7,753 bases of DNA from a virus (Duplodnaviria > Heunggongvirae > Uroviricota > Caudoviricetes), in IMG/VR virus record IMGVR_UViG_648276647_000005, positions 1 to 7,753 of that record, one strand, 5' to 3'. Positions within the stretch are counted from its first letter, which is position 1, and each line of letters begins with the position of its first letter. Shown piece after piece: positions 4,131-4,247 of this stretch. The notes under the pieces are model-generated. The model was not told where the DNA came from. It saw only the letters and a list, made by a program, of their open reading frames with translations, and ran no database searches. The translations under genes and the position numbers were made by a program.

Positions 4131-4160
4131 GAAACAACAAAACCCGCTCAATGGCGGGTT
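4131..4160 (-). terminator. intrinsic terminator in the late leader (tR'-like), downstream of the Q-like gene
   Basis: Minus-strand hairpin AACCCGC-CATTGA-GCGGGTT (4141..4160) followed by TTGTTGTTTC (rc of 4131..4140). The plus strand has no T-tract, so it is unidirectional. Confidence 0.6.
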
Positions 4161-4218
4161 CTGGTAAAGTTCATGCGCTTGGTTCGCCTCGCGATACAGC
4201 TTTGCGAAGCATACCGGA

Positions 4219-4247
4219 ATTGAAGCAGTTTATGCGTAAAAAATCAA
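4219..4247 (-). promoter_or_regulatory. candidate late promoter (pR'-like) immediately downstream of the Q-like gene
   Basis: Minus-strand -35-like TTGATT (4247..4242, overlapping the Q-like stop codon), 17-nt spacer, -10-like TTCAAT (4224..4219). Would give a leader of about 80 nt ending at the 4131..4160 terminator. Motif-level call only. Confidence 0.3.

Follow-up and report, generated by a model that had tools for sequence, protein, structure and literature searches.

A DUF1133-family protein and a predicted late-gene control cassette of the phage 21 type in a Rac-like prophage of Escherichia coli

The closest described counterpart of the locus treated here is the late control region of phage 21, in whose annotated genome the stop codon of the Q gene is followed in turn by the -35 hexamer TTGACA, a Q-binding element (QBE; ATTGAGCA-AATGAGCA) lying in the promoter spacer, a -10 hexamer, the transcription start, a sigma-dependent pause element (SDPE) of sequence TAAGCT at +2..+7, and a terminator. 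The numbering of these elements agrees with the published subsite positions, -21 and -13. Published structures of the phage 21 Q protein (Q21) assign the reading of bases to residues of H5/H6 and show the QBE to lie in the interval from -35 to -10; the bases are contacted by A124, R127 and R128, with H95 (PMC6606751), and the H5-H6 loop enters the minor groove of the DNA and touches a second protomer. The leader RNAs of antiterminated late promoters may have a further role, in that StxS (PMC7547250) and IsrK (PMC4825925), which are leaders of this kind made in the lysogen, possess small-RNA functions. The present study concerns a 7,753-nucleotide (nt) stretch of viral DNA (IMG/VR record IMGVR_UViG_648276647_000005, positions 1 to 7,753; referred to in full as the window), in which a preliminary description had taken the short interval 4131..4247 for a compact late leader and the gene upstream of it, by its position, for Q. 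We show herein that comparison of sequences firmly ties the product of this gene, a protein of the DUF1133 family, to the mechanism of Q21 and predicts its DNA site. The interval itself most likely serves as the cassette (pR'-qut-tR') that controls the late genes of a Rac/lambda-like prophage, and on which the upstream DUF1133 protein would act.

The features of the Q gene and the cassette are as follows.

4244..4786, minus strand: gene of the predicted Q-like antiterminator (DUF1133), 180 amino acids (aa); its start overlaps the ybcO stop
4307..4339, minus strand: codons of the predicted DNA-recognition helix, residues 150-160 (STCEKRIANWL), placed by alignment to Q21
4242..4247, minus strand: -35-like hexamer TTGATT, within which the Q gene ends at TGA (4246..4244)
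4234..4241, minus strand: candidate Q-binding element, TTTTACGC, with TTACGC as its core, at -28..-21 relative to the pause element
4219..4227, minus strand: putative extended -10, read from the sequence as TG (4227..4226), one base and TTCAAT (4224..4219)
4208..4213, minus strand: -10-like TATGCT, the predicted sigma-dependent pause element, from conservation of TAnGCT and equivalence to the SDPE of phage 21
4185..4207, minus strand: conserved, initially transcribed block TCGCAAAGCTGTATCGCGAGGCG, 23 nt, near-invariant in 44 close variants
4132..4163, minus strand: intrinsic terminator tR', with its stem at 4163..4138, its core at 4160..4141 and its U-tract running to 4132

On the minus strand, the letters from the end of the Q gene onward are GCT TGA TTTTTTACGCATAAACTGC TTCAAT TCCGG TATGCT TCGCAAAGCTGTATCGCGAGGCG AACCAAGCGCATGAACTTTACCAG AACCCGC CATTGA GCGGGTT TTGTTGTTTC. 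The locus was compared with homologues from three sources, namely phage records, one genome per species (54 non-redundant loci, in which the Q protein is 31-96% identical to that of the window) and IMG/VR (80 close relatives). Counts of conservation among close relatives are based on 44 unique variants.

The window protein matches the Pfam family DUF1133 (PF06576) with an E value of 2.8e-109 and 362.7 bits, over residues 1-175 of 176 profile positions. It also matches Phage_antitermQ (PF06530), but over residues 69-140 only and as a marginal pass (28.0 bits, the gathering cut-off being 26); PF06530 is precomputed on nearly all homologues. A further match is to PHROG 753, annotated as 'anti-termination protein Q-like'. 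The family is abundant (892 protein clusters at 90% identity), and some Shiga toxin (Stx) phages carry DUF1133 Q genes. Its annotation is inconsistent across databases: RefSeq uses 'DUF1133 family protein', several phage records in GenBank use antitermination protein Q, and in the literature that could be searched it figures in a single paper, as a table annotation, 'Q antiterminator (HHPred)'. A direct sequence search of the Protein Data Bank (PDB) returned Q21 at an E value of 0.15 only, and profile and fold comparisons were needed. When aligned with hhalign, a profile of 39 family sequences matched phage 21 Q with a probability of 97.2% (E 3e-11) over residues 14-177. An AlphaFold model of the window protein, with a predicted local distance difference test score (pLDDT) of 74.8 overall and of ~88 or higher at residues 101-170, was compared with the PDB by Foldseek; the top 12 matches were all Q21 chains (TM score 0.62-0.69, E 2e-4 to 6e-2), and beyond these 12 no PDB match had E < 1. 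By this comparison, the fold of Q21, that is, an H1 helix on a helical bundle resembling sigma region 4 and a C-terminal helix-turn-helix, is present in the DUF1133 protein. The N-terminal WGxW helix and the overall Q21 architecture are kept, and past that helix the segment that forms the ring in Q21 has about 29 extra residues. No homology of the window protein to the Q protein of lambda was found. The positional assignment of Q is thus borne out by Pfam, by PHROG 753 and by the profile and fold matches to phage 21 Q, and both sequence and model support the view that the window protein is a Q-type antiterminator, from a little-studied DUF1133 branch of the phage 21 Q family.

If the protein works as Q21 does, its C-terminal helix should read a site in the promoter spacer. 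In the alignment to Q21, residues S150, E153, K154 and R134 of the window protein correspond to A124, R127, R128 and H95, respectively. The candidate 8-mer has the same position relative to TAnGCT as the upstream subsite of phage 21 (QBEu) has relative to the SDPE. Loci were anchored on TAnGCT, and the 8-mer at -28..-21 was classed by the two residues that follow the conserved T-C of the C-terminal helix. The resulting pairs of helix and 8-mer are given below.

Helix STCEKRI (window): 8-mer TTTTACGC
Helix TCE[S/T/N]RI: 8-mer nnTTGCGC
Helix T[C/H/Y]Q[N/D]RV: 8-mer TTTT[A/G]CCG
Helix TCRRRID: 8-mer A[G/T]TGAGC[A/C]
Helix STCRRRI (Yersinia, Providencia): 8-mer TTTGAACA
Helix PTCRNRI: 8-mer ATTTATCC

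An EK helix is thus paired with TTACGC, an E[STN] helix with TTGCGC and a Q[ND] helix with T[AG]CCG. RR helices are paired with TGAGC[AC] in most RR loci and with TGAACA in four RR loci of Yersinia and Providencia. In phage 21 itself, the helix is ATCRREV and the subsite TGAGCA, the upstream subsite likewise lying at -28..-21 from the SDPE. In a partial Mantel test on 48 loci plus phage 21, with N-terminal protein distance and transcribed-region distance as controls, the 8-mer distance followed the helix distance (r = 0.46), and none of 5000 permutations gave a value as high. The next 8-mer (-20..-13) showed no association with the helix (r = -0.13), and neither did the transcribed region (r = -0.03). 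Natural recombinants point in the same direction. At locus L010, residues 1-149 are 100% identical to those of the window protein and are followed by a new helix and an entirely different promoter region. At L017, an RR helix and AGTGAGCC occur together, yet the transcribed block is of the window type, and at L020, L037, L019 and L024 an E[S/T] helix occurs with TTGCGC, yet the block is of the Klebsiella type. This covariation and these recombinants together lead us to regard TTTTACGC (4241..4234) as the likely Q-binding element, to which the DUF1133 protein would bind through its C-terminal helix.

The mosaic Q genes of L010 and L011 (E. coli ECMA0423 and Shigella flexneri SFBU1023; ~2501-3160) encode the helix RTCCSRVDVW, with the recombination joint exactly at the helix start. 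Their leader has TTGACT-18-TATATT, two hairpins and another terminator.

The part of the cassette that is transcribed first shows a different pattern of conservation. Among close variants, the 23-nt block at 4185..4207 is nearly fixed, while the linkers on either side of it vary; it is common to cassette classes with different Q helices and does not track the recognition helix. The block may serve pausing or loading at the level of DNA, or it may contribute to a leader RNA that has a function of its own. An extended reading, which we offer as tentative and consider rather unlikely, makes more of this block: DUF1133 would be an uncharacterised, very common branch of Q that loads via a single spacer subsite, and the block would be an extra functional element. 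In detail, two or three helix residues would read the subsite by a simple code, with neither the minor-groove loop nor a second protomer, and the block would be a pause or loading module or, alternatively, the core of a small RNA expressed in the lysogen, like StxS or IsrK.

It is more doubtful still that the leader RNA of the lysogen, with a predicted length of ~78 nt, doubles as a regulatory small RNA beside its role in the Q switch, the block being its functional part. StxS (PMC7547250) and IsrK, which lies just downstream of antQ (PMC4825925), provide precedents, and this reading is favoured by a block that stays near-invariant in 44 variants between variable linkers and that is shared by cassettes of different Q specificity. 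The leader also folds better than shuffled sequences (z -2.3). However, when the window was scanned in full against Rfam at E <= 1, no family matched the leader, the only hits being sok and a sub-threshold isrK-like match elsewhere, and the U-tract at the 3' end of the leader is interrupted (UUUUGUUGUUU). The block of the window is able to pair as an 8-base-pair (bp) hairpin; nevertheless, a conserved 5' leader hairpin (GCUUCGC...GCGAGGC) was rejected, RNAalifold having kept 3 pairs only, and the helix of the window type being paired in 57% of cells, with no compensatory change in its conserved pairs. A conserved block beside a pause element may, moreover, equally mean functions in pausing or at the level of DNA. 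Gifsy-1 AntQ/IsrK was considered as a characterised homologue and rejected as such: AntQ of Gifsy-1 is of the phage 82 (Q82) type, and IsrK is hence an analogue of the leader, not a homologue.

Two further observations concern the leader. A mini open reading frame (ORF) on the minus strand (ATG 4174..TGA 4148; 8 codons, MNFTRTRH), which runs into the terminator loop, was treated as a chance occurrence because it is missing or in another frame in L008, L009 and L012. In Rac-SA53 and Rac (L002 and L003), the leader start TAAGATGCCGTT is nearly identical to that of phage 21, TAAGCTGCCGTT, and comparison of the sequences suggests that leader segments have been exchanged between DUF1133 and Q21 cassettes.

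Turning to the promoter, the hexamer TTGATT (4247..4242) does overlap the stop of the Q-like gene, as had been described, with TGA (4246..4244) contained in it. TTGATT is invariant in the 44 close variants, and TTGAnn occurs at the matching place in distant relatives. TTCAAT, which follows with a spacing of 17 nt, is the same in most of the close variants, apart from a few single-base differences, and its counterparts in other classes are TTGAAT, TTAAAT, TAAATT and TATAGT. In the relatives from Providencia and Yersinia (41-45% protein identity), the best promoter of the scan, TTGACT-16-TATAGT or TATGAT (10/12), is found at the orthologous site and is followed by a terminator. In Serratia relatives also, the upstream -35/-10 pair is a strong canonical promoter (10/12) at a fixed distance. 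The layout common to all lineages consists of a -35 (TTGAnn), a spacer of 16-18 nt, a -10, 4-7 nt, and TAnGCT. Q proteins of the Klebsiella and Citrobacter types have 12 additional residues, whereby the gene takes in the -35 and its stop codon comes to lie within the -10. A promoter-like pair with a higher score inside the Q gene, TTGGCT-18-TATATT (4309..4280), was rejected; it is unconserved in close relatives, in which TATATT changes to TATACA.

All 50 loci examined have TAnnnT, A2 and T6 being kept throughout, and 45 of them have TAnGCT; in one alignment (A4), T1 and A2 are invariant. Among the 44 close variants, the third base alone varies (TATGCT, TACGCT, TAAGCT), and the 5-nt linker before TATGCT is freely variable. 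Its position and conservation, when set against phage 21, therefore point to TAnGCT of this family as the equivalent of the phage 21 SDPE, at which polymerase would pause. Transcription is predicted to start at ~4212 (+/- 2) as judged from the position of the -10, or at 4214 by homology with phage 21, and under either estimate the pause element would lie at the extreme 5' end of the transcript.

The same conservation could be read in another way, with TATGCT (4213..4208) as the true late -10, a start near 4201, and neither a promoter at TTGATT/TTCAAT nor a pause element. A2 and T6 are always kept in TAnGCT but not in the proposed -10 of the E. coli and Klebsiella classes, and TAGGCT of the Klebsiella class is preceded by TGn, as in an extended -10. 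Nonetheless, this assignment is improbable, and it was rejected for want of a -35 at a usable distance and for its conflict with the strong upstream promoters of distant relatives. Where a -35 should stand, 16-18 nt upstream, no similar hexamer is present, the letters being CGCATA in the window and CGCGGA in Serratia; Providencia, Yersinia and Serratia have their strong canonical pair upstream, at a fixed distance. TAAGCT of phage 21 is a mapped pause element (+2..+7) with a start site that agrees with the published numbering, and the 8-mer that covaries with the helix would fall outside the promoter spacer. We therefore keep TTGATT and TTCAAT as the predicted promoter and TATGCT as the predicted pause element.

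A strong unidirectional terminator had been placed about 80 nt past TTGATT, and it is present there as a hairpin (4163..4138) of -16.1 kcal/mol, with z = -3.7 and none of 200 shuffled sequences folding as well. Its core, AACCCGC-CATTGA-GCGGGTT (4160..4141), is followed by UUUUGUUGUUU and appears in the tool scan. On the plus strand, the hairpin is followed by UUCUGGUAAAG, which contains no U-tract, and tR' is therefore unidirectional. A terminator on the same strand lies within 160 nt of the Q stop (<=160 nt), at 45-112 nt after it, in 50 of the 54 homologous loci, where chance would give ~0.05 per 170 nt. Stem letters vary from lineage to lineage; in an alignment of 25 leaders, pairing in the helix amounts to 96%, with compensatory changes at 5 of its 10 pairs. 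The hairpin AACCCGCCATTGAGCGGGTT (4141..4160) recurs identically in an Edwardsiella phage (L006, ~3125-3145), whose Q is 31% identical. Special selection was rejected as the cause, because Vibrio, Pseudomonas, Shigella and Stx2c phages have the same hairpin, in near-identical copies, as a generic terminator, and from its sequence the tR' hairpin looks like a generic, widely reused terminator.

That this hairpin merely ends the early operon that encodes Q, the promoter motifs being incidental and the late genes transcribed from another promoter or by Q-independent read-through, is very unlikely. Such a view would accommodate a promoter score that is not by itself above background, as well as the generic use of the hairpin in unrelated phages, but it leaves unexplained the conserved geometry of -35, -10 and TAnGCT across 31-96% identity, the covariation of helix and 8-mer, and module boundaries that start exactly at the -35, and it does not account for the full-length homology and fold match to Q21. 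Hardly credible is the proposal that DUF1133 is a spacer-binding, promoter-specific activator of the sigma region 4 or extracytoplasmic function (ECF) kind rather than an antiterminator, and the terminator an unrelated attenuator: the Q21 fold does look like sigma region 4 in complex with an anti-sigma helix, the window promoter, with its weak -10, could need help and the torus-forming segment differs from that of Q21, but simple activation would call for neither a terminator at 45-112 nt past the stop in 50/54 loci nor a conserved pause-type element, the layout is unchanged in relatives whose promoters are strong and close to consensus, and the N-terminal WGxW helix and Q21 architecture are retained. 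The pR'/tR' logic of lambdoid late control that the preliminary description had recognised in the leader is thus supported by comparison, through the layout shared with phage 21, the helix/8-mer covariation and the recurrence of the terminator.

Several observations nevertheless weigh against a late-gene control cassette served by a DUF1133 Q. The promoter match by itself is not better than chance: the position-weight score of TTGATT-17-TTCAAT is 9.1, just under the 95th percentile (9.5) of background 110-nt windows, and position 2 of TTCAAT is T, where sigma-70 normally requires A. The T at this position is also the reason why the promoter is missing from the scan list of the tool, and the feature rises above chance through its conservation across homologous loci. 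The predicted pause element, at -1..+5, would extend over the start site and lie 2 nt nearer the -10 than its counterpart in phage 21. A single helix-specific subsite can be recognised, versus the direct repeat of two that phage 21 needs; no second direct-repeat subsite was seen, the second 8-mer ATAAACTG matching TTTTACGC at 3/8 positions. The long H5-H6 loop of Q21 (HT[loop]H, with R113) is missing from DUF1133, which has a 13-residue gap there in both alignments, and the lack of a second subsite would fit the lack of this loop, which serves the minor groove and the second protomer in Q21. The segment equivalent to the Q21 ring, with its extra residues, is modelled at a pLDDT of 60-80. The literature that could be searched held no transcript mapping or biochemistry for any DUF1133 protein.

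From the sequence elements and by analogy with phage 21, we infer the following course of events. Host RNA polymerase with sigma-70 would initiate at TTGATT-17-(TG)nTTCAAT, at ~4212, and after 11-16 nt sigma region 2 would re-bind TATGCT (4213..4208), causing the polymerase to pause. In the absence of Q, the polymerase would continue and stop at the terminator (4163..4132), releasing the ~78-nt leader RNA. Once the early operon has yielded enough Q, the protein would bind the spacer 8-mer TTTTACGC (4241..4234) via its C-terminal helix (STCEKRIANW), and the DNA-bound Q would load onto the paused polymerase. There it would narrow the RNA exit channel and block terminator hairpins, as shown for phage 21 Q. 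The modified polymerase would then read through tR', the membrane-protein cassette and a second terminator (t2), and into the holin, endolysin, Rz/Rz1 and terminase genes. The cassette is in these respects an ordinary lambdoid late switch, and its less ordinary part is its DUF1133 Q.

The window belongs to a Rac-like, lambdoid prophage of E. coli. Over positions 3000-4900 its identity to E. coli O55:H7 DEC5E is 100%, and matches exist in 1831 of 5426 complete E. coli genomes; the leader was found in 1639 E. coli genomes, or ~30% of the complete ones. All late genes in the window are on the minus strand. In the direction of that strand, the order begins with hok/sok, DUF1367, YbcO (DUF1364), the 180-aa DUF1133 protein and the leader, and past the leader it runs through a 189-aa predicted membrane protein, a small opposite-strand gene, a lambda-family holin, endolysin, Rz/Rz1 and the terminase small subunit. 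The lysis and morphogenesis genes (holin, endolysin, Rz/Rz1, terminase small subunit) thus lie downstream of the leader on the same strand. The terminase small subunit matches the Pfam family Terminase_2, and the Rz/Rz1 region has a LysC/Rz1 match. The features past tR' are listed below.

4051..4059, minus strand: possible extended -10 promoter of the moron, TGgTAAAAT, proposed from its match to the consensus
3453..4022, minus strand: moron gene, 189-aa predicted membrane protein (PHROG 11870, E 6e-108, unknown function)
3269..3484, plus strand: small gene, 71 aa if GTG 3269 is the start and 53 aa if ATG 3323 is, PHROG 14506 (E 6e-33), a hypothetical protein in RefSeq
3198..3229, minus strand: second intrinsic terminator t2, with its stem at 3229..3208 and its U-tract running to ~3198, -16.4 kcal/mol
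2764..3114, minus strand: holin S of the lambda family (TIGR01594, E 5e-41; Pfam Phage_holin_3_1), the first late gene
2284..2760, minus strand: endolysin, after the holin and followed by Rz/Rz1 and the terminase small subunit

The preliminary description had also placed a membrane-protein moron between two terminators, inside the antiterminated transcript. The moron is indeed found between tR' and t2, and t2 proves to travel with the inserted cassette. In the 1639 E. coli genomes with the leader, homology often begins at the -35 or in the spacer and ends at the U-tract of tR', and close relatives diverge completely directly after that U-tract. The DNA past tR' thus serves as a slot for insertions. 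In other prophages that share this holin, homology sets in only ~14 nt before the holin ATG, with t2 and the cassette missing, so that t2 belongs to the inserted cassette and not to the holin module. By these comparisons, the inserted cassette is composed of the membrane-protein gene, the small opposite-strand gene and t2; it is present or absent between homologous flanks and has its own terminator, as a moron does. t2 lies ~90 nt before the holin start and is unidirectional, with no U-tract on the plus strand. The moron protein was called a membrane protein from hydrophobic stretches in its sequence, and it has no match in Pfam or NCBIfam. Its possible promoter TGgTAAAAT is not in the scan list because it has no -35. 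The small plus-strand gene is convergent with the membrane-protein gene, the two 3' ends overlapping by 32 nt, and late transcription would therefore cross the small gene antisense.

Mobile elements and other cargo have been found in the same region. At L063 (E. coli strain 361; 1748..2445), an IS1 element lies between the small opposite-strand gene and t2 in a cassette that is otherwise identical, and IS3 and IS150 insertions occur within the same 1.9-kb region in other strains. tRNA genes lie directly past tR' in Klebsiella phage KpF5 (L004; 3249..3321) and phage 21 (L007; 2069..2224).

Elsewhere in the window, a complete hok/sok type I toxin-antitoxin locus is found at 6232..6556 on the minus strand, with a Pfam HOK_GEF match on a 70-aa mok/hok ORF and an Rfam sok match of 114.7 bits at 6382..6556. 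The sub-threshold isrK-like Rfam match (6142..6223, minus strand; 30.6 bits, the gathering score being 50; E 0.0012) has its 3' end at a terminator at 6164..6145, and it probably stems from structure at the 3' end of hok mRNA, not from an IsrK homologue. A long ORF on the opposite strand (503..1453, plus strand), situated between Rz/Rz1 and the terminase small subunit, has no Pfam match and is missing in the otherwise identical DEC5E prophage, in which the terminase gene directly adjoins. Its C-terminal part (YRG...TTD...ENEF) may be loosely like ADP-ribosyltransferase motifs.

A cassette of this kind would set the timing of the lysis genes, the virion genes and any cargo past tR'. For the window alone, a guess from position becomes a well-supported annotation. 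If DUF1133 proteins work like Q21 and the DNA word of each variant is known, the induction of toxins and morons should be predictable from sequence; the variants may also constitute a set of orthogonal antiterminator/site pairs. Toxin cargo of this sort occurs in relatives. In Escherichia phage Rac-SA53, the DUF1133 Q, 75% identical, is followed in the same slot by the pertussis-like toxin genes eplBA, and in related prophages of enterotoxigenic E. coli (ETEC) the slot behind the DUF1133 Q carries a pertussis-like toxin operon.

In comparison with known systems, the locus is most fully matched by phage 21. In both, a -35 hexamer, putative in the window, lies within a few bases of the Q stop, a protein-specific DNA site (here the candidate 8-mer) occupies the spacer and has a first subsite that begins 28 nt before the pause element, this element, predicted in the window, reads TAnGCT and is placed at the transcript start, and an intrinsic terminator precedes the lysis genes. 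The Q proteins are homologous and of the same fold, and most DUF1133 members with a TCRR helix use the subsite TGAGC[AC]. The two differ in that the window protein is only ~15-24% identical to phage 21 Q, has ~29 more residues in the ring segment and, like the rest of DUF1133, lacks the long H5-H6 loop with R113. Its predicted base-reading residues are S/E/K as opposed to A/R/R, and its site is TTACGC as opposed to TGAGCA, with no direct repeat of the site in the window. The predicted leader of ~78 nt compares with ~50 nt in phage 21 and contains the conserved 23-nt transcribed block, which phage 21 does not have, and the -10 of the window is extended (TG) but otherwise a poor hexamer.

The likeness to pR'-qut-tR' of lambda would extend to a constitutive promoter, a -10-like pause element, a QBE between -35 and -10, a terminated leader and the late genes behind it. 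The Q protein of lambda, in contrast, belongs to an unrelated family (PF03589) and needs an extra -35-like element, and the lambda leader (6S RNA), at ~194 nt, is longer than that of the window. As with StxS of Stx phages and IsrK of Gifsy-1, a short transcript would span the interval between the Q gene and the first downstream cassette and end at tR'; unlike them, the window leader has no sequence or Rfam relationship to these RNAs, and the Q of Gifsy-1 is of the phage 82 type. Finally, a foreign cassette that follows tR', precedes the holin and would belong to the Q-dependent transcript is also what the stx slot of Stx phages and the corresponding slot of Rac-SA53 contain. Whereas those slots carry stx and eplBA, the cargo of the window consists of a 189-aa predicted membrane protein and a small opposite-strand gene, and is closed by a terminator of its own.

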